IMG/VR virus record: IMGVR_UViG_2671180603_000011 | Location: 1 to 31,153 of that record | Strand: one strand, 5' to 3' | DNA from: a virus | Lineage: Duplodnaviria > Heunggongvirae > Uroviricota > Caudoviricetes | DNA length: 31,153 nucleotides | Shown: in pieces, positions 2,915-15,715 of the stretch | Position numbering within the stretch: position 1 is the first letter of the stretch | How the letters are laid out: each line of letters starts with the position of its first letter | Program-made: the position numbers and the translations under genes | Notes under the pieces: generated by a model | What the model saw: only the letters and a program-made list of their open reading frames with translations | Databases searched by the model: none | Told to the model about the DNA's origin: nothing

Positions 2915-2974
2915 GGTATCCGTTCTGCTGAAGTGTCATGGCGTTGATTTTACGGTGACTCTTCGACAGTGAAA

Positions 2975-2997
2975 AGAAAAAAGGCCGCAGAGCGGCC
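2975..2997 (-). terminator. Rho-independent terminator-like hairpin upstream of btuC
   Basis: Plus strand reads GGCCGC-aga-GCGGCC preceded by AAAAAA, so on the minus strand a GC hairpin is followed by a T-run. It lies about 60 bp upstream of the btuC start and 110 bp downstream of the stop of the 3107..3688 gene. Confidence 0.5.
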
Positions 2998-3106
2998 ATA
3001 ATTACATTCAAAAATCAATAAGTTACATGATTATCAATAACTTACAGACACACAAAAACACAGCCAACCACAGCAAGTAACAGGGATGTGGTCACTTTGT
3101 GGATCA

Positions 3107-3688
3107 TCAGCCAACAAATTTAGCAACAAAATACGCGACCGCCGCCGTGAAAATGGTTGTGCACACTGGCACAATAATGCCACTCCAACGCCACTTCGTA
3201 TTATCATCAACCTTGTCAAACCGCCGATTCATCTCATCCATAATCTTGTCAAAGCGTTTATCCATCGCTTCGGTAAGCTCACCCTTCAGGCTGTTAATGT
3301 CTGATTTGAGCTGCTCTTTCAGGTTAGCTGTATCAGATTTAAGCTCACCTTTCAGATTCGCAATATCGCATTTAAGCTCACCTTTCAGATGAGCAATGTC
3401 TGCTTTGAGCTCACCCTTCACCTCACCAACATCGGCTTTGGTTGAGAGGTTTGTAGTGCGTTCAGCAAGCGTCGCAAGGTCGTTTCTTGTTAGCGATAAA
3501 TCACTTTCGAGTCGCTCAATTCGCCTTTCAAGTTTATCTGACATTCCACCTCCACTACTGCCGCCATCGCCGCCATCGCCGCCATCGCCGCCATCGCCGC
3601 CATGATAAAGCACATCACGCTCAGAATGCGACATACTACCTGCTGAATTACCGAAAAGGTTTCTTGCTACATTACCCATTTTCACCAT
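3107..3688 (-). CDS. Membrane-anchored coiled-coil protein with Gly/Asp tract and 11-residue repeats (XhlA/DUF1640-like architecture); function unknown
   Basis: 193 aa; (GDG)n tract; four tandem 11-aa heptad-like repeats (D-I-A-x-L-K-G-E-L-K-x); C-terminal hydrophobic anchor IIVPVCTTIFTAAVAYFVAKFVG. Start overlaps the upstream gene by 17 nt. Architecture assigned from sequence features only. Confidence 0.5.
   Translation of the reverse strand: MVKMGNVARNLFGNSAGSMSHSERDVLYHGGDGGDGGDGGDGGSSGGGMSDKLERRIERLESDLSLTRNDLATLAERTTNLSTKADVGEVKGELKADIAHLKGELKCDIANLKGELKSDTANLKEQLKSDINSLKGELTEAMDKRFDKIMDEMNRRFDKVDDNTKWRWSGIIVPVCTTIFTAAVAYFVAKFVG
3293..3427. repeat. About four imperfect tandem copies of a 33-bp unit inside the 3107..3688 coding sequence
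   Basis: Repeating core agctcacctttcag with periodic flanks (tcagatttaagctcacctttcagattcgcaata / tcgcatttaagctcacctttcagatgagcaatg ...); encodes the 11-aa protein repeats. Confidence 0.7.
3561..3603. repeat. Tandem 9-bp repeat (ccgccatcg, about 4.8 copies) inside the 3107..3688 coding sequence
   Basis: Perfect head-to-tail copies at 3561, 3570, 3579 and 3588 plus a partial copy; encodes the GDGGDGGDGGDGG tract; in-frame unit length. Confidence 0.85.
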
Positions 3689-4172
3689 CCTGTGCTTTGT
3701 CTTTCTCCAACCACTTCAGCACCGCAGACGTACGGTAAAGGCTCAGGTAACCACAATTCAGGCAATGCAGCGTGTAATAAGTTTTGCGCATATCAGGTAT
3801 GCTCTTAACATCACCCAAAAAAGTATAAGATACATAATGCTTTATGTTCTCTTTAATTAACTCACTCTGCTCCTCCAAGGGTAGATTGTTAAAATTTTCT
3901 GGTTTCTTATTTTTATCCCAGCAAAGATCCATACTTTCAGGCACAGATAATCGAGACGATCCACATGAAGGGCAGACACTGGAAACCCCCTTCTCAGACA
4001 AGAAACGGAAGAAGATTTCTGGCGTAATCTCCATCAGCCGCTCCTTATGTTTATTGACACGACTCATCGACTTCTTATTGATTTCATCAGCTTCTTCTTT
4101 GCATTTATCTTCTATATATTTCGATAGTAAATAGTCATATAACTCTTTTTTTGTAGGTTTTTTTATTTCCAT
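3672..4172 (-). CDS. Hypothetical Lys/Glu-rich protein with a four-Cys zinc-ribbon-like signature (CPSCG ... HCLNCG)
   Basis: 166 aa; markedly AT-rich compared with flanking genes; ATG is 3 nt downstream of the int stop, with a GGGAGGA Shine-Dalgarno lying inside the last int codons. Confidence 0.5.
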   Translation of the reverse strand: MEIKKPTKKELYDYLLSKYIEDKCKEEADEINKKSMSRVNKHKERLMEITPEIFFRFLSEKGVSSVCPSCGSSRLSVPESMDLCWDKNKKPENFNNLPLEEQSELIKENIKHYVSYTFLGDVKSIPDMRKTYYTLHCLNCGYLSLYRTSAVLKWLEKDKAQDGENG

Positions 4173-4174
4173 AG

Positions 4175-5152
4175 TTACATTCCTCCCAAGGGATTAAACC
4201 TCACCGCATCCTGCAGGTAATCCGGCGCAAGATGGGCATAAATCATCGTTGTCTGAATCTTTGCGTGCCCCAGAATTTTCTGGAGCGTCAGAATATTGCC
4301 GCCGTTCATCATGAAATGACTGGCGAAGGTGTGGCGCAGCGCATGAACAGCCTGGCCGTCAGGAACATCAGGTGCGACCGTTTTGATGACATCGCGAACC
4401 AATGGATAATCCAGCGTTGGAAACACTAGTTTCCCGCCCCGTTTTTTGATCTTTTCAAACAGATTTTCGGAGATCGGGACAGTGCGGTTTTTACTGTTCT
4501 TCGTTTTTGAAAAAGTGATTCGACAATGAAGAACACGGCGCTGCTCCAGTGCCGCTACCTCGCCCCATCGCGCCCCGGTCGACAGAAGGATTTCGACAGC
4601 CAGCCGTTCATCGGGATTTTCAGCCAGTGCATCCAGCAACTGAACACATTCAGACTTACTCAGGTATCCCATTTCGCGCTCGTTAACCTTCATTCCTTTA
4701 AGGCCTTGAACGGGGTTATCGTTAAGAAAATGGCCGGATGAGATGAGTGCGGTAAACATCGCGCTTAACGCCCCAATCTCTCGATTTATGGTGCTGGGCT
4801 GTATCCCCTGCTCTATCCTGGACACACGTAGCTCGGTGAACATCGTTGTATTAAGTTTATGCACGCACGGGTCATCCATTGCCTCACTCAAGCGCAGCAA
4901 TTTAAGGCGCGTGTTATGCCCTGACTTCATTAGCTGGCCGTGGTATTTCCACCACAAGTCAATAAGCACTGACAGAGGACGGCGATCAATGGAGTTTCCT
5001 TTCCACTCATTGTTATGCTGTTGCGCCAGCACCCACCGCTCATATAAAACTGCATCCGATTTCGTTTTAAATTTTTTGCGAATGCGTCTGCCCTTACGTC
5101 CCCCCGGGCGCATATCCAGCAGGTATCCTCCTGCAATTGATTTTATGCTCAT
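4175..5152 (-). CDS. int: Tyrosine recombinase, P2-type phage integrase
   Basis: Catalytic-domain motifs HALRHTFASHF (H-x-x-R) and LGHAKIQTTMIYAHL (Tyr nucleophile); N-terminal GRKGRRIRKKF arm-binding-like region resembles P2 Int as recalled. The ORF track extends to 5263; start placed at the MSIKSIAGG Met at 5152 so the gene no longer overlaps the repressor. Confidence 0.9.
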   Translation of the reverse strand: MSIKSIAGGYLLDMRPGGRKGRRIRKKFKTKSDAVLYERWVLAQQHNNEWKGNSIDRRPLSVLIDLWWKYHGQLMKSGHNTRLKLLRLSEAMDDPCVHKLNTTMFTELRVSRIEQGIQPSTINREIGALSAMFTALISSGHFLNDNPVQGLKGMKVNEREMGYLSKSECVQLLDALAENPDERLAVEILLSTGARWGEVAALEQRRVLHCRITFSKTKNSKNRTVPISENLFEKIKKRGGKLVFPTLDYPLVRDVIKTVAPDVPDGQAVHALRHTFASHFMMNGGNILTLQKILGHAKIQTTMIYAHLAPDYLQDAVRFNPLGGM

Positions 5153-5201: not shown

Positions 5202-5513
5202 TTAGCCGGGCTGTGTGCCAGTCTTGCGGGGTCTTTGTGAACGAGATGTGACATCGTACCCATCAGGGGAGAGAGAGGGACTTATCTGTCCGGCCGCTTC
5301 GTTAGTTTCATCACTCATCAGCCAAGTCGTGTATTTTTTGAGTTGTGGATGCATCGTTACTTTGAGCAAAACTTCAGTCCCTACCCCCCTAATTCCTGTT
5401 TCGTACTGTTTGACCGTACCAACCGCAATACCTATTAAATCCGCAAACTTAGCCTGACTTAGCCCCTCAGATTCCCGAATTGCTTTTAATTTATTCGAAA
5501 TTTCCATTGACAT
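5202..5513 (-). CDS. Immunity repressor candidate, small XRE/Cro-C1-type HTH protein (P2 C / 186 cI position)
   Basis: HTH LSQAKFADLIGIAVGTVKQYETG; immediately upstream of int on the same strand; ATG at 5513 has AGGTG six nt upstream. The track ORF starts at a GTG at 5522. Confidence 0.7.
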   Translation of the reverse strand: MSMEISNKLKAIRESEGLSQAKFADLIGIAVGTVKQYETGIRGVGTEVLLKVTMHPQLKKYTTWLMSDETNEAAGQISPSLSPDGYDVTSRSQRPRKTGTQPG

Positions 5514-5536
5514 GGTGTGCACCTGACTACTATATT
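5507..5536 (+). promoter_or_regulatory. Near-consensus sigma70 promoter (TTGACA, 18-bp spacer, TATATT) reading rightward into the early operon
   Basis: TTGACA at 5507-5512 and TATATT at 5531-5536. The -35 overlaps the first codons of the leftward repressor gene, so the repressor promoter must lie to the right and the two transcripts converge. Confidence 0.55.
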
Positions 5537-8005: not shown

Positions 8006-8241
8006 AACCCGCCATTATCTGCATTCTGTGCGAGAGCACTGTCACCGGCGACCATTACCGCATCAGGGAACGCCACATCAACCCTGACCGTTCGCTGCTG
8101 GACAACATCACCGGCCCGGATGATGAACGCGTGATCTGCCTGAACGACGGCTCGCAGTTACGCGTGCGCAATATCCGGCGCGAAATCACGCTCGAACCCA
8201 CCCCATTCACACGCGGGAAAAAACCGGAGAGTGACGCATGA
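8002..8241 (+). CDS. Hypothetical small protein with a CxxC pair
   Basis: 79 aa; start overlaps the upstream stop and its stop overlaps the methyltransferase start. Confidence 0.35.
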   Translation: MKPAIICILCESTVTGDHYRIRERHINPDRSLLDNITGPDDERVICLNDGSQLRVRNIRREITLEPTPFTRGKKPESDA

Positions 8242-9197
8242 AAGGTATTCTGAACCAGCGCTCACCGCTCAAATGGGCGGGCGGCAAATTCAGTATCATG
8301 CCGCAGCTGCGCGAATATTTACCCAAAGCCGCCTGCCTGATCGAACCCTTCGTGGGCGGCGGCTCGGTCTTCATGAACACGGATTATGACTATTACGTAT
8401 TGTGTGACAGCAACCCCACGCTGATTAATTTCTACCAGCAACTGACGACCAACACCACGGAATTAATGGATCGTGCATGGTCGCTCTTTAAGGATGGCGG
8501 CACACCGGAAGCCTACAAACGCCATCGCGGGGCATTTAACACCATCGCGCTGGCCACCGACAGATTACGCGGCGAATCCCTGGAATGGGCAGCGCTGTTT
8601 CTGTACCTGAACCGCCATTGCTTTAACGGCCTGTACCGCACCAACCAAAAAGGCGAATTCAATGTGCCATTCGGCAAACACCGCATGCCTTATTTCCCCT
8701 GCCAGGAAATGCGCCTGTTTGCTGATAAAGCCAACGAGACCCGGACCCGCTTTATTCACGCGGATTTCCGTACAGCCTTCACAATGCCGGCTGAGATCCG
8801 CCGTTTTTCTTCGGTGCACGGCGATATCGCCATTTACTGCGATCCGCCCTACCTGCCACCGGACGGTAAAGAGGCGTTCACTCACTACAACGGCCGGGCA
8901 TTTACCCGCAAAGACCACCGTGACCTTGCGGCGCTCATGATGAACGCCTGGCAGCGTTACGGTATCCACCCGGTGGTCTCCAACAGTGACACCTCCGAAA
9001 CCCGGCAGATCTATTCCTCGTTTGAGCTGCACACCCTGAGCGTTCGCCGCGCTGTGGCTGCCAGCAGCAGTGCACGCCAGCAGGCAAAAGAGGTGATTGG
9101 TGTTTATCCGCCAGCCCGTGAGGTCCGGATCCGGGATGTCAATGCGGGCTGGCTGTCTCACATTCCCGCTCCACACCCCACCACGGAGATCATGTAA
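8238..9197 (+). CDS. DNA N6-adenine methyltransferase, Dam/D12 class
   Basis: AdoMet-binding motif EPFVGGGSV near the N-terminus and catalytic DPPY (IYCDPPYLP, DNA 8840-8851); has a roughly 60-aa C-terminal extension. Target sequence cannot be read from the protein. Confidence 0.85.
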   Translation: MKGILNQRSPLKWAGGKFSIMPQLREYLPKAACLIEPFVGGGSVFMNTDYDYYVLCDSNPTLINFYQQLTTNTTELMDRAWSLFKDGGTPEAYKRHRGAFNTIALATDRLRGESLEWAALFLYLNRHCFNGLYRTNQKGEFNVPFGKHRMPYFPCQEMRLFADKANETRTRFIHADFRTAFTMPAEIRRFSSVHGDIAIYCDPPYLPPDGKEAFTHYNGRAFTRKDHRDLAALMMNAWQRYGIHPVVSNSDTSETRQIYSSFELHTLSVRRAVAASSSARQQAKEVIGVYPPAREVRIRDVNAGWLSHIPAPHPTTEIM

Positions 9198-11088: not shown

Positions 11089-13605
11089 ATGAGCCATCAC
11101 AACACACACCTGGCGTACCCGTGGAATGCCCCGCTGCCGGTTATTGATCCTGAGACGTTCGGCAGAGCGTTACCGCAGAAGCCAACCGCATTACAACGGG
11201 CAATCCGGGACTACCTCACCGAAGACATTCGCACTGAGGCCCGGCTGGATGAAGAAACCGTGGTCTTCCTGACAACCACGGACAAAGGCAAACAAATTAA
11301 TTCACACCTTCACCGGGACGAAGAGCGGCAGACAAGGTTGGATAAGCTGGCACGACACAGACGCGAAAATCCGCCAACGGAGGTATCGGAAGCGATAGCC
11401 GAACTTCGCGCCCTGCCACCGTTTCTTGCCAGCGTGCTGATCCGCGATCTGGCACGCCTGAACCGGAAACAGCAAAGCGCCCGCAGCAAAGGTGTAAAAA
11501 ACAATAGCGCATACGTGGCCGATAACTTCGTTCGCCGTGGACTGCGCGCGCGCCTGAAACGTATCGAACGGGTTAACGACCGCTTTGCAACGCCGGCATT
11601 CAAATCCAGTGTCATACGCCATCGCCTTGAAGAGCTGCTCATGCTGCCGCAACTCAGCCGCGACAAGATCCAGCGCATCGCCACACTGACTGCGCAGTTC
11701 TTTACCGCAGAATTTGAACGCATATGTGATGAAGTTCCTGAACAGACCGGAAAGAATAATGACAGCCCGGTTATCTGGCTGCTGGCCTACCAGAAGATGG
11801 CACGCATAGCCTTAACGCTGGGCGTGATCCCGCCATACTGGCCGGAACTCGAAATCAGGCACAACCGACGCACACCGCCGGACCCTGAACTGATACCGGG
11901 TGCGGTACTGCGCATCACCTGCGCGACCTGGTGGAACAACCAGTTACGCCACATCGCCGATCTCTGGCGGGAGGAGTTACTGCGTGCCGCCGGCAGAGTG
12001 TCACGTAAACAATCCCCTTATATCAGCCATGAATCACTACTGGAGTTTCGCGAGAAGCGCCAGCGCACCCGTGATTTTCTCAAAAGCTGGGATATTGAAA
12101 ACGAAGACGGCGAGCGCCTGAGTCTGGAGGAAGTGTACTGGGCGGGCCCGGGAAATCCACGCAACCGCCGCAATGAAATGATGGTCTGCGTCAGAGGGAT
12201 GGAGATGGTAGCCGAATTGCGGGGTGACGTCGCATTCTTCATCACGGTAACAGCCCCTTCCCGCTTTCACAGCGTGAACGAAGACGGCAGCCTGAACCCG
12301 AAATACAACGGTGCCACTGTACGCGATACCAGTGATTATCTGGTTTACGACTTCTTCGCAGCCGTAAGAAAAAAAATCAAAAAAGAGGGGCTGGGCTGGT
12401 ACGGCGTGCGAACCGCTGAGCCACACCATGACGGCACGCCACACTGGCATATGCTGGTATTCACGTCCCCTGAGAACGCAGAGCGCATCATCGAAATTAT
12501 GCGCGACGCAGCGATTAAATCAGATCGCCACGAACTGGGGGACGATATTTCGCCGCGCTTTGAATGCGAGAAGATAGATCCGGAAAAAGGGTCGCCGGCA
12601 AGCTATATCGCAACCTATATCGGTAAGAACCTGGACGCCAGCGCCTTCCACAACAATGATCCGAAAACCGGAAAACCTTACGTCGATAAGGAATCCGGGA
12701 AAACCATGGCGGAAACCGTGGAGAACGCCATTGCATGGGCGAGCCTTCACCGCATACGTCAGTTCCAGTTTTTCGGCATTCCGCCCCGCCAGGTGTGGCG
12801 AGAACTCCGCCGCCTTGCAAGCCAGATGGAGCGCAACCCGGCATCACCGAAGCGACTCGATCATGGAGATATTGACGCCATTATGGCCGCCGCAGACGTG
12901 GGGTGTTTTGCCACCTACATCATGAAACAGGGTGGCGTGCTTATTCCACGCAACCAGTATCTGGTCCGCACCGCATACAAAACCGCAGACGAAGCTAATG
13001 ACTACGGCGAATTCCCGCAGCGCATCTACGGAATTTGCGCCCCGTCACTCGGGGAACGGTACACCATCTGCACCCATCCGGATGAGTGGAAACTGGTCAG
13101 AAAAGAATCTGACGCCGACAACAGCACGGACGAGGGTTTTGACCTTCGGGGCGGCTTCGCCGCACCTTGGACTCGTGGCAATAACTGTCCCGGTGACGAA
13201 AAAACAGCCGGAACCGGCACAGAAAACAGGCAGCGTGGGTCGCGGCTGACGCTTCCGGAAAGCGGCCTGGCGCACTGGTTGCAGACGTTAACCCGTCACG
13301 AGCGGAAACAGCTCATCAGACAGCTTAAAAATCAGCCGCCCACCACGGATACCGGACAAAATAACACCAGACCAGCATCAGACACCCCTGTCAGGGTGGA
13401 GGTTGTCGTGCCTGTCGACACCACGACCATCGCACAAATCACCCGCGAACTCGACGCGCTGGGTGTGCAGCTGCCTGACGCAGCCATTATTTCCGTGAGT
13501 AACGGTGCCCGCGTTCGCCCGGGCGACGGGCGTATCGCGTACTGGAGCGCCACAACCCGCCGTATCGTCATCACACAGGAGTCGTCAGCGGAGGTAAGAT
13601 CATGA
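11089..13605 (+). CDS. Rolling-circle replication initiation endonuclease, P2 gpA-like (HUH superfamily)
   Basis: 838 aa; HUH metal-binding motif TPHWHMLVF (DNA about 12421-12462) and paired active-site tyrosines YIATYIGKN (about 12601-12630) with the Y-x3-Y spacing known from P2 A. Confidence 0.85.
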   Translation: MSHHNTHLAYPWNAPLPVIDPETFGRALPQKPTALQRAIRDYLTEDIRTEARLDEETVVFLTTTDKGKQINSHLHRDEERQTRLDKLARHRRENPPTEVSEAIAELRALPPFLASVLIRDLARLNRKQQSARSKGVKNNSAYVADNFVRRGLRARLKRIERVNDRFATPAFKSSVIRHRLEELLMLPQLSRDKIQRIATLTAQFFTAEFERICDEVPEQTGKNNDSPVIWLLAYQKMARIALTLGVIPPYWPELEIRHNRRTPPDPELIPGAVLRITCATWWNNQLRHIADLWREELLRAAGRVSRKQSPYISHESLLEFREKRQRTRDFLKSWDIENEDGERLSLEEVYWAGPGNPRNRRNEMMVCVRGMEMVAELRGDVAFFITVTAPSRFHSVNEDGSLNPKYNGATVRDTSDYLVYDFFAAVRKKIKKEGLGWYGVRTAEPHHDGTPHWHMLVFTSPENAERIIEIMRDAAIKSDRHELGDDISPRFECEKIDPEKGSPASYIATYIGKNLDASAFHNNDPKTGKPYVDKESGKTMAETVENAIAWASLHRIRQFQFFGIPPRQVWRELRRLASQMERNPASPKRLDHGDIDAIMAAADVGCFATYIMKQGGVLIPRNQYLVRTAYKTADEANDYGEFPQRIYGICAPSLGERYTICTHPDEWKLVRKESDADNSTDEGFDLRGGFAAPWTRGNNCPGDEKTAGTGTENRQRGSRLTLPESGLAHWLQTLTRHERKQLIRQLKNQPPTTDTGQNNTRPASDTPVRVEVVVPVDTTTIAQITRELDALGVQLPDAAIISVSNGARVRPGDGRIAYWSATTRRIVITQESSAEVRS

Positions 13606-14033
13606 CGCGATTTCACTGCACCATGCAGCGTCAGCAGTTCGACGCCGTTATGCGCCAGCGCACGCCAGCCATGACACTGAGAGGCGTAGCCACAAGACCA
13701 CAGCCCGGGGACGAACTGGAAATCACGGTGGCCAGCCCCGATCGCACCACCACAACCACCATCACCGACATACTTAACAGGCGACCGGGCAGTGAATATC
13801 AGAGCTGGACCATTGCCGTTCGCCCACGCCGTTCGCCGGAAGAACCGGAGCCGCTCACCCCGGCCGGAAAAATCATGCAGAAGTACCACGAAGAGCAGGC
13901 CCGCAAACACAATGTCGCGCTGGCCAGAACACTGACTGCCGTCAATCGCAAGGCCGCACTGGCGCGAAGGGTCTTTTCATCGCAGCACCCTTCATTCGCC
14001 AGACCGGCACAACACAGGAGAGATCCACAATGA
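13602..14033 (+). CDS. Hypothetical protein translationally coupled to the replication gene
   Basis: 143 aa; ATG overlaps the gpA-like stop (ATGA). Confidence 0.4.
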   Translation: MTRFHCTMQRQQFDAVMRQRTPAMTLRGVATRPQPGDELEITVASPDRTTTTTITDILNRRPGSEYQSWTIAVRPRRSPEEPEPLTPAGKIMQKYHEEQARKHNVALARTLTAVNRKAALARRVFSSQHPSFARPAQHRRDPQ

Positions 14034-14278
14034 GAGAGCAATTACCAGACACCGTGCCAGTACAGGAAATCAAAGAAAATATCAGGCAACAACTTCACGG
14101 ATTTTATATTACTTATGATTTGTGGCTGAAAAACGGAGCAAATCCAGACGGAATATTTTCGCGAAACTGTGGTTTATGCGCCAGCCTCTGGGATTATCTC
14201 GAATTAACGGGTGCTGATAAAGAAGCCGCACTGGGGCTATTGCACATTGATTTCAGAAATGCCGGGCGAACCGCATAG
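14030..14278 (+). CDS. Hypothetical protein
   Basis: 82 aa; lower GC than the surrounding genes; last gene of the rightward early/replication string. Confidence 0.4.
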   Translation: MREQLPDTVPVQEIKENIRQQLHGFYITYDLWLKNGANPDGIFSRNCGLCASLWDYLELTGADKEAALGLLHIDFRNAGRTA

Positions 14279-14333
14279 CGGTGAGTCTGTCAGGGCGAGG
14301 AAGCGGAAGATCCACCGCCCCACAGAATGGCAC

Positions 14334-14609
14334 TTACGCGCCATCACTGAGCAGAATATCCAGTGCCATTTGCCTTTCGTCTGGTTTAAGGCGCTGGAGC
14401 AATGCTTTAACGACACCATCAGTTTGCAGGTCACTGGGTGAAATCACGCGAAGATCGGAAAGATTGAGCGAAAAACGCATATTACAGTCAGAATTAGTGC
14501 AGGTGCAATAAACTACCGCCAGCGTTTTTGCGTCATCCTGCCATGCAGTTTTGCGTATAGCCGCCCGGCAGTGACACGCCGGACATTCAATTTTCATCAC
14601 ACCCGCCAT
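14334..14609 (-). CDS. Ogr/Delta-family zinc-finger late-gene transcriptional activator
   Basis: Cys pattern CPACHC ... CTCTNSDC (C-x2-C-x22-C-x4-C) characteristic of P2 Ogr, P4 Delta and 186 B; about 90 aa. An alternative start at the MKIEC Met (14597) is possible. Confidence 0.7.
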   Translation of the reverse strand: MAGVMKIECPACHCRAAIRKTAWQDDAKTLAVVYCTCTNSDCNMRFSLNLSDLRVISPSDLQTDGVVKALLQRLKPDERQMALDILLSDGA

Positions 14610-14659
14610 AACCCCCCCACAATCTGACCGGTTGCAGGGGTAATATAGTCTTTTTCGGG

Positions 14660-15715
14660 TTATTTTTCATCAGCCAGCGCAGACACCACATTTTCCACAT
14701 CTTCCAGCGTAAAATTAAGGTGTAACGACGGGGGGATTTCGGGCTCGCTGTTCACAGCCTGCATGAATTTACGGCAGACAGGTGTCACTTCATCCCGTCC
14801 ATAGGTTGTCCTTGCCTTATCGGGATCGCCAAGTCCGCTCGCATTTTGCGGGATAATACCGGCAAGACCAGCCGGAAAGCGGTGCGCCGTAAGAACATCC
14901 TGAGCGCTGATATTCTTCACATTTGAAAACTCATCTTTTTGCTGATTATCCCCAACCGGAATAATTTTAATCCCGTCCGGTTGCCCTTTTGGGATACTGA
15001 TAAACATGTTACGGAAATTCCCAAGCCCGTTACCGCTCTCTATTTTTTTACGTATAGCTTCTTCAGCCTCAACAGACATATTCGGGTCGGACGCGTACAT
15101 GATGAACCCCATATGCGCACCGTTGTGATAGTAGCGACGTCTGAAAATGGTCGCCTCACTGTTCAGTAACGCTGAATGAATACCACCGATATAATCAGGC
15201 AGTCCATAAATCTGCTGTCGCGGATCATGCATACGTAAAAACACAACATCAGACGGCGAATAGACCAGCGGCTCGCCCTCCTGTAACACGATAAAATCAA
15301 GTTGCTTGCTACGACGCAGATACAAAGACGGTAATGGTGCCAGCGCCACCACCCGTCCCCACCCGTTACGGACCTTCAGAATGGCCACATCACCAAACAG
15401 CAGGTAGTCAAAGACAGCCATTTCCATCTGATCGGTCGTCAGTCCACCCCCCTGGTAGCTGGCACACACCATATTTTTGCGTGCATACAGTACGCCGCCA
15501 TGCTGGGCGTTAAGATTCGGCAACTGCGCGAGCGCAAGTCTGTCTATTGGTAGTGTCCAGTAGTTGTAGCTACCGTTATACCAGACGTTGATGTATTCCG
15601 TGCCGGTAGTCAGTATCGGTTCCGGCTCCCCGAAAGTGATAATATTGCCGCGTCCGGGAGTAAAATTTTCTGTCTGTGCCCGTTTACGCAGGCGTGCGCT
15701 TTTACGTTTACTCAT
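14660..15715 (-). CDS. Portal protein (P2 gpQ-like)
   Basis: About 351 aa, similar in length to P2 Q; lies immediately downstream of the terminase ATPase with an ATGA start/stop overlap at 15712-15715. The track ORF starts seven codons earlier at 15736. Confidence 0.75.
   Translation of the reverse strand: MSKRKSARLRKRAQTENFTPGRGNIITFGEPEPILTTGTEYINVWYNGSYNYWTLPIDRLALAQLPNLNAQHGGVLYARKNMVCASYQGGGLTTDQMEMAVFDYLLFGDVAILKVRNGWGRVVALAPLPSLYLRRSKQLDFIVLQEGEPLVYSPSDVVFLRMHDPRQQIYGLPDYIGGIHSALLNSEATIFRRRYYHNGAHMGFIMYASDPNMSVEAEEAIRKKIESGNGLGNFRNMFISIPKGQPDGIKIIPVGDNQQKDEFSNVKNISAQDVLTAHRFPAGLAGIIPQNASGLGDPDKARTTYGRDEVTPVCRKFMQAVNSEPEIPPSLHLNFTLEDVENVVSALADEK

Follow-up and report, generated by a model that had tools for sequence, protein, structure and literature searches.

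A zinc-ribbon and tail-anchored stalk gene pair behind the integrase gene of a P2-like Escherichia coli prophage: a candidate phage-exclusion cassette

Two small genes behind the integrase gene (int) of a P2-like Escherichia coli prophage were analysed computationally. The prophage lies in a stretch of 31,153 nucleotides (nt), IMG/VR record IMGVR_UViG_2671180603_000011, positions 1 to 31,153, hereafter called the window, and the gene pair occupies positions 3107-4172. The first gene encodes a zinc-ribbon protein (ZnR) of 166 amino acids (aa) and the second a 193-aa coiled-coil protein of the DUF1640/CCDC90 kind. Both open reading frames (ORFs) are genuine genes, because the cysteines are invariant in the ZnR homologues, the partner has 59 homologues, and the gene order, overlap and architecture recur. 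The pair is proposed to be a mobile cassette expressed in the lysogen that, much like lambda RexAB, would exclude other phages or abort their infection. We favour this reading tentatively, somewhat short of an even chance. A broader proposition is put forward with more reserve, as a possibility on the doubtful side. It holds that such pairs form a widespread, previously unrecognised exclusion system at the "rex position" of P2-like and lambdoid prophages of Enterobacterales, built from a hypervariable ZnR sensor on a tethered N-terminal peptide (N-peptide), a trimeric stalk and two isoforms.

Organisation and transcription of the gene pair

The features of the cassette and its surroundings are as follows.

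3672-4172, minus strand: zinc-ribbon gene (ZnR), 166 aa
3107-3688, minus strand: DUF1640/CCDC90-like tail-anchored coiled-coil gene, long form, 193 aa
3107-3544, minus strand: candidate nested short isoform, 145 aa (stalk and transmembrane (TM) helix), from ATG 3544-3542 (M49)
3560-3603, minus strand: perfect 9-nt tandem repeat GGCGGCGAT (coding strand), 4.9 copies, encoding the (Gly-Gly-Asp)n linker
3274-3420, minus strand: 33-nt tandem repeat, 4.5 copies, encoding the 11-residue stalk units (L/V)KGELKxDIAx
4175-5152 (325 aa, PGAP start) or to 5263, minus strand: P2-type tyrosine integrase (int), Int_N and Phage_integrase domains
5202-5522, minus strand: C-type helix-turn-helix (HTH) immunity repressor (C), HTH_3, phrog_147
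2998-3106: phage attP arm, left boundary of the cassette, conserved in five aligned cargo types; host homology stops at 2997
2973-2997, minus strand: intrinsic terminator GGCCGC-TCT-GCGGCC with a T run, in host-derived DNA at attL

The two genes share 17 nt (3672-3688), and this overlap and both ORF positions agree with the initial annotation. The stop codon of int (TAA, 4177-4175) is followed by the ATG of ZnR at 4172, so the gap is 2 nt and not 3 nt as first annotated; the Shine-Dalgarno sequence GGGAGGA does lie within int, as that annotation had it, 9 nt 5' of the ATG. Homologues of the 193-aa protein begin at the equivalent of M4 (window 3679), which would give an 8-nt overlap. The order, overlap and architecture of the pair recur across about ten independent lineages, and this conservation rules out chance ORFs. 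The marked AT-richness noticed earlier for the ZnR gene was borne out. Its GC content is 38.3%, against 47.1% for the 193-aa gene and 52.8% for the prophage part of the window, and only 0.4% of 501-nt prophage windows reach a GC content as low.

Simple scans of the minus strand from C to the end of the cassette gave no promoter-like or terminator-like site. The strong terminator at 2973-2997 lies in a stretch matched by all of 5426 complete E. coli genomes and, being host-derived, is positioned to end a C-int-cassette transcript after integration. The anatomy, namely the coupling, the lack of an internal promoter or terminator and the terminator after the cassette, therefore fits one transcript. 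A single C-int-ZnR-partner transcript with translationally coupled genes is plausible, with C as the first cistron of the presumed operon; the co-expression with C and int suggested by the initial annotation is thus a plausible one.

The zinc-ribbon protein

No Pfam, NCBIfam or PADLOC family was assigned to ZnR, which matches phrog_4293 (function unknown) at 1.4e-22. Word-indexed searches gave 18 relatives, which come from E. coli, Shigella, Salmonella and Providencia. When 1.84 billion representatives were searched exhaustively with the profile, no more than 90 clusters matched. Their lengths are all 57-180 aa; therefore the family has no fusions to informative domains. A further profile-based homologue search added few members. 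The ZnR family is one of small, stand-alone Cys4 zinc ribbons.

The ribbon is split, with one knuckle at C67xxC70 and the other at C137xxC140. These four cysteines are invariant in 43 members having 22-57% identity to the window protein; beyond them and the initiator methionine nothing is invariant, and G141 and W154 are nearly so. The broad alignment has no conserved stretch of 7-10 columns. Zinc binding is predicted from the Cys4 knuckles, and several zinc-ribbon Pfam families match below threshold. In the AlphaFold2 (AF2) model (pLDDT 83.5, pTM 0.66), a long helix at the N-terminus (8-46) is followed by a short helix, a small beta sheet and a last helix at the C-terminus. C137 closes the predicted strand 131-137, and C67 and C70 are placed in the loop ahead of the first strand. 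The C-terminal helix is acidic and the protein is soluble. Members of 100-137 aa are without the N-terminal helix.

The model has no informative structural neighbour, and the ZnR profile did not match any PDB sequence. Neither tblastn of ZnR nor a search with the cassette DNA gave a match in the phage collection. A late activator of the Ogr/Delta type was considered and rejected: PF04606 is absent from the Pfam matches at E<=1, and the relatives carry a separate ogr gene.

The tail-anchored stalk protein

Many of the 59 relatives of the 193-aa protein are named "DUF1640 domain-containing" or "CCDC90 family" by NCBI. PF07798 matches the window protein with 26.2 bits (E=8.3e-6), under the gathering cut-off of 33.5, and the match is confined to profile positions 68-171 of 175, so that the N-terminal head (1-67) is not covered. 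PF07798 was found at E<=1e-3 in 15 of 28 relatives (best 1e-9), and many homologues have precomputed PF07798 matches. The initial annotation knew of no described family for these proteins. This was wrong for the 193-aa protein, which is DUF1640/CCDC90-like. In the phage collection, matches to the stalk protein were limited to DUF1640 genes of Liberibacter and APSE phages and a single Klebsiella P2-like record.

The C-terminal stalk of DUF1640 membrane proteins opens with a beta-layer motif, [aliphatic]-[A/S]-T-K-x-[D/E] (Hartmann et al. 2016, PMC4786415). In the window protein this motif is LSTKAD, residues 81-86. T83 is the sole invariant column in the alignment of 28 relatives and D86 is nearly invariant; the distant partners have YATKED, FPTKSD, FSTKSD or FATKSD. 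The profile of the stalk family matches the three-chain PDB entry 6h9l (E=3e-8) across the "ATKxD" motif and the repeats after it. From family membership, the models and this match, the protein is predicted to form a trimeric coiled coil.

From its N-terminus the protein has a disordered peptide, a linker of Gly and Asp, a heptad segment, LSTKAD, the 11-residue repeats and a C-terminal TM helix. In the AF2 model, residues 1-44 are disordered and helices span 48-164 and 172-192. Residues 171-189 have a mean Kyte-Doolittle hydropathy of 2.14 with four residues remaining after them, and the TM anchor is kept in all relatives. Because of these helices and the hydrophobic segment so close to the C-terminus, the protein is predicted to be a tail-anchored, mostly cytoplasmic stalk. 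The description of the pair as a soluble Cys4 protein with a membrane-inserting coiled coil stands, given both models and the hydropathy.

Both repeats vary in length. The (Gly-Gly-Asp)n repeat is longer in the window than in other genomes. The number of 11-residue units differs among alleles, with homologues of 112, 123, 134, 145 and 156 aa, and the alignment gaps among the relatives are 11-residue blocks.

Two other identities were rejected for this protein. A DUF883 stress protein was dismissed as there was no DUF883 match. A lysis-cassette component would stand in the wrong operon, and the similarity of the C-terminal part to holin/XhlA-like PHROG families is non-significant (E 0.006-0.016).

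The nested internal start

The linker glycines are encoded by ten GGC codons and then by GGA-GGT-GGA just before the ATG at 3544. An in-frame GGAGG (3553-3549) stands 4 nt ahead of this ATG. In 13 of 14 loci the internal ATG, which is nearly invariant, has a GGAGG 4-10 nt 5' of it. The PGAP annotation uses the internal start (145 aa). The start of the long ORF overlaps or abuts the ZnR stop in every lineage examined (0-19 nt). The N-peptides of distant lineages share only 7-43% identity, yet the coupled long ORF is retained, which would be very unlikely for non-coding DNA. Because the coupled long ORF is kept and the internal GGAGG and ATG are conserved, the gene probably yields two products, a long one with peptide, tether, stalk and TM helix and a short one that has the stalk and TM helix alone.

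Homologous pairs in other prophages

Of 14 distinct contexts, 11 have the pair as the last genes of the immunity operon, where lambda has rexAB. The partners share one build, consisting of a variable peptide, a Gly linker, Met, heptads, (Y/F)x(T/K)K(E/S)D, repeats and a TM anchor. The initial annotation tied the module to the slot between int and att. This restriction did not hold, as lambdoid prophages place the pair directly after the repressor.

Three lambdoid prophage types have this arrangement (L101-103, L118, L119/120). In Serratia lambdoid prophages, a cI-like HTH gene is followed by a 115-aa ZnR and a 95-aa partner, with YdaS/YdaT at the Cro position and replication genes divergent. 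In the second type, the ZnR start overlaps the stop of a Phage_CI_repr/HTH_3 repressor gene, and in the third the pair lies behind a Peptidase_S24 repressor.

The P2-like prophages that show both C and int have the pair behind C-int; these are the E. coli btuC-site variants, L003, L106-108 and L121/122. A Klebsiella P2-like prophage has the same arrangement, and in Salmonella the order, read from int onward, is int-ZnR-partner-btuC. Two further P2-like lineages have the pair after C-int, with an extra 278-aa membrane protein preceding it in one. At L106 (1494-3947), and likewise at L107 and L108, a gene with a VasI domain was seen between C and int, and the 278-aa membrane protein comes before the pair in the int-att slot. 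A Providencia P2-like element has the pair adjoining ogr with no recognisable C or int upstream, and one pair is a remnant disrupted by an insertion sequence.

The int-att slot and its occupants

The int of the window was found in 299 of the 5426 E. coli genomes, with 290 matches at 95-99% nucleotide identity. Its homology starts at position 1, 8, 12 or 17 from the int stop, depending on the cargo type. At the other side, five aligned cargo types are alike through the attP arm to 3106 and diverge at 3107, the last stop codon. From both boundary alignments, therefore, the exchangeable unit is 3107-4174. Prophages sharing the int carry at least seven alternative cassettes, including the following.

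Type A: the pair of this window; 23 genomes
Type A2: 160-aa ZnR and 181-aa partner; L113
Types B and B2: 137-aa ZnR and DUF1640 partner; L097, L099
Type C: 120-aa ZnR and 146-aa partner; L002, L100
Type D: lone unrelated 131-aa protein (e.g. WP_000416308), no Pfam or PADLOC match; L098, L109-L112
233-aa and 140-aa pair, the latter with a weak HEPN match (E=0.0028); L017, 6004-7117

Type D makes up about three quarters of the sampled rows and was seen in E. coli O55:H7, O104:H4, 1303, O111 and EC571. The carriers of type A include many Shiga toxin-producing E. coli (STEC) lineages (O157, O145, O103, O26), which sampling may explain. Behind related int genes in other genera, the slot holds a PADLOC PDC-S31 (DUF2971) protein in Serratia (L022, 6490-7302) and a "cll" protein in Thalassolituus (L081, 5926-6558). 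The comparison with related prophages, through its exact boundaries, the cassettes and the PDC-S31 and "cll" occupants, thus confirms that this is a slot for variable cargo, as had been suspected. In a recent census, int-att is a minor P2 hotspot, with 3% of P2 defence systems (NAR 2026, PMC13586616).

Two observations on the records may be added. PGAP calls only the short form of the stalk protein, and the ZnR gene is sometimes missed. The L017 contig, labelled Vagococcus sp., has a btuC of the E. coli type and a P2-like int that is 98% identical; this points to contamination or a wrong label.

Divergence of alleles within the pair

Types A, A2 and B are 96-97% identical in the stalk and TM parts, 27-55% in ZnR and 14-69% in the N-peptide. 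Over 55 pairs, ZnR identity was related to N-peptide identity with a Spearman rho of 0.46 and to stalk identity with a rho of 0.22; the pairs are non-independent, so that p-values of these correlations carry no meaning. The pattern is as would be expected if a variable specificity subunit docked on an effector that is constant apart from a variable peptide, and it is not proof of this.

Discussion

The end of the repressor/integrase operon is the usual prophage place for genes excluding other phages, and the phage-exclusion reading starts from this position. As judged from the anatomy, the cassette would share a transcript with the immunity repressor and integrase genes, and its translation would be coupled. 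Family membership and the models point to a DUF1640-like trimeric stalk in the cytoplasm, held in the inner membrane by its C-terminal tail anchor. The long form would carry a disordered N-peptide on a Gly-rich tether, and a short form from the internal ribosome-binding site is probable from sequence conservation. ZnR may be the specificity or sensor subunit docking on the N-peptide, considering the co-variation of the hypervariable parts beside a constant stalk and TM helix. The later steps are speculative. Infection by another phage might trigger or titrate ZnR. The anchored stalks might then permeabilise or depolarise the membrane, or block a step at its cytoplasmic face, and the short isoform might modulate the long one as Esc does SieB or S107 does S105.

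Several points weigh against phage exclusion. PADLOC-DB 2.0.0 gave no match to known defence systems beyond coiled-coil noise: ZnR matched only DUF3800_VII (E=0.0089), and the partner only low-scoring coiled-coil regions of LmuB, ZorA and similar proteins. The literature searched for DUF1640 with phage, for the protein accessions, for tail-anchored, zinc-ribbon and anti-phage proteins and for 6H9L does not mention the pair. The word sensor is a label and not a finding, because no informative neighbour of the ZnR fold was found. A lone TM helix at the C-terminus, with 2-5 residues in the periplasm, makes a weak pore candidate. The co-variation of ZnR and the N-peptide could reflect adjacent DNA, with breakpoints in the conserved linker and stalk. 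The commonest occupant in E. coli is an unrelated 131-aa protein, so the cargo slot alone is not proof of defence. Furthermore, one pair lies between chromosomal cdaR and DUF3461/dapD/glnD (L116 4001-4658, and L117) with no integrase, repressor or other prophage genes among the called neighbours, and may be an orphan or domesticated copy.

This orphan copy, persisting apart from recognisable prophage genes, is among the points that would suit an addiction module like a toxin-antitoxin (TA) system, in which the stalk is a membrane toxin, ZnR is its labile or titratable antidote, the prophage is stabilised and defence is a by-product. Two-gene TA operons typically encode a small soluble protein first and then, in an overlapping gene, a membrane protein, as is the case here. 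The cassette is also mobile and mosaic, and the C-terminal part has the non-significant holin/XhlA-like similarity given above. However, there is no homology to any TA family, a prophage with repressor and integrase has no obvious need of an addiction module, and a hypervariable first gene with a constant second gene is explained no better than by a sensor role. We consider the addiction module unlikely. A phage-intrinsic role, regulating the lysogeny/lysis decision, excision or induction, for example by sequestering a regulator at the membrane through a ZnR-stalk complex, is improbable to a similar degree. It would agree with the pair being always co-oriented with, directly downstream of and coupled to repressor or integrase. 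Nucleic acids or proteins are frequent ligands of zinc ribbons, although here the matches are only weak and generic, and RexA has a reported secondary role in the lambda switch. On the other hand, the cassette is dispensable, as about three quarters of the prophages with nearly the same C and int have unrelated cargo or a single unrelated gene. One pair also serves two unrelated regulatory architectures, P2-like and lambdoid, and the C alleles do not follow the cassette type, WP_000904674 occurring with both type C and type D.

The host has C-tail-anchored stress proteins of the YqjD/ElaB/YgaM type, and the tail-anchored, mostly cytoplasmic coiled coil would fit a lysogenic conversion in which the stalk acts like them or changes the envelope, to the benefit of the lysogen independently of phages. 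The genes appear by position to be expressed in the lysogen, and the STEC lineages among the type A carriers, possibly only a matter of sampling, point the same way. Against this stand the lack of any sequence relation to DUF883 or other stress families and the hypervariability of the partner gene together with cassette swapping, which one would sooner expect of conflict systems; nor would the paired zinc-ribbon protein be accounted for. Lysogenic conversion therefore appears rather improbable to us. Cargo for counter-defence or against satellites, shielding the prophage or its induced progeny from host defences or P4-like satellites, is the reading we give very little credence. P2-like hotspots do mix defence and counter-defence cargo, and the specificity part evolves rapidly, but a lysogenic rather than early lytic operon argues against a role in the phage's own infection, and the pair is also present in lambdoid prophages, which P4 does not parasitise.

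The phage-exclusion reading was also compared with known systems. The kind is known, namely immunity-operon cargo pairing a soluble and a membrane protein, and the parts and their arrangement are undescribed in the literature searched. Like lambda RexA/RexB, the pair consists of two genes that close the immunity operon, encodes a soluble and an inner-membrane protein and, as judged here by position, would be expressed in the lysogen. In contrast, there is no sequence or fold similarity to them (Pfam, PHROGs, NCBIfam, PADLOC and structure comparison), and RexB is polytopic, whereas the window protein has a single tail anchor on a long predicted trimeric stalk. The conserved in-frame internal start in a membrane protein gene, with a predicted shorter product, resembles P22 SieB/Esc and lambda S105/S107, in which the two products antagonise each other. 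There is no homology with these either, and M1 or M4 is separated from M49 by 45-48 codons, in contrast to two residues in the holins. The predicted long form of the window protein thereby adds a whole peptide, putatively for docking, and the tether. Like other cargo of P2-like hotspots (old/tin, Z/fun and the minor int-att), the pair is an exchangeable cassette between conserved phage genes; unlike it, the pair is outside the systems recognised by PADLOC 2.0.0.

DUF1640/CCDC90 (PF07798) includes mitochondrial MCUR1 and CCDC90B and many prokaryotic and phage proteins. The window protein has in common with this family the stalk with a beta-layer motif, the hendecad-type repeats and the C-terminal TM anchor. 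It differs in that a disordered variable peptide and a Gly-rich tether replace the N-terminal head, a zinc-ribbon partner gene is obligate and an internal start is probable. To our knowledge, no function has been assigned to any bacterial DUF1640 member.

If the pair excludes phages, it would be a compact two-gene system with unfamiliar parts, namely a DUF1640 stalk and a Cys4 ribbon that lacks structural neighbours. Temperate phages of unrelated families would then be seen to share a cargo position at the 3' end of their immunity operons, and a first function or handle would be gained for the relatives that mitochondrial MCUR1/CCDC90B have in bacteria. Types A, A2 and B, with a common stalk and differing ZnR and N-peptide, are a natural allele series that makes specificity swaps directly testable. 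Should the pair be an addiction or regulatory module instead, the nested-start architecture and the exact boundaries would still be useful for annotation.

Prophage setting and minor observations

The window from 1 to about 2.9 kb is the nlpC-btuD-btuE-btuC locus of E. coli, and the P2-like prophage extends from 2998 onward. All 5426 complete E. coli genomes align through window 2997, and the majority of the alignments end there. An attR copy was looked for and none was found within the window, which stops inside the prophage. In the attP arm, a near-direct repeat TAAGTTATTGAT / TAACTTATTGAT was noted at 3010-3045, between the terminator and the cassette, and it may represent Int arm or integration host factor (IHF) sites.

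The early genes are divergent from C and int. They include an ORF at the cox position and neighbours of the DUF4761/DUF4754 type, as known from relatives. An early promoter-like site, divergent from C, is located at 5507-5536 on the plus strand. The replication gene of the prophage is as follows.

11089-13605: gpA replication protein

The classical hotspot between gpA and the portal gene (old/tin; 13602-14660) is short here and holds a 143-aa ORF without a Pfam or PADLOC match. The early region of the prophage also encodes a D12-class, Dam-like N6-adenine DNA methyltransferase (8238-9197, plus strand), the top PADLOC match of which is an orphan methyltransferase model (6e-80).

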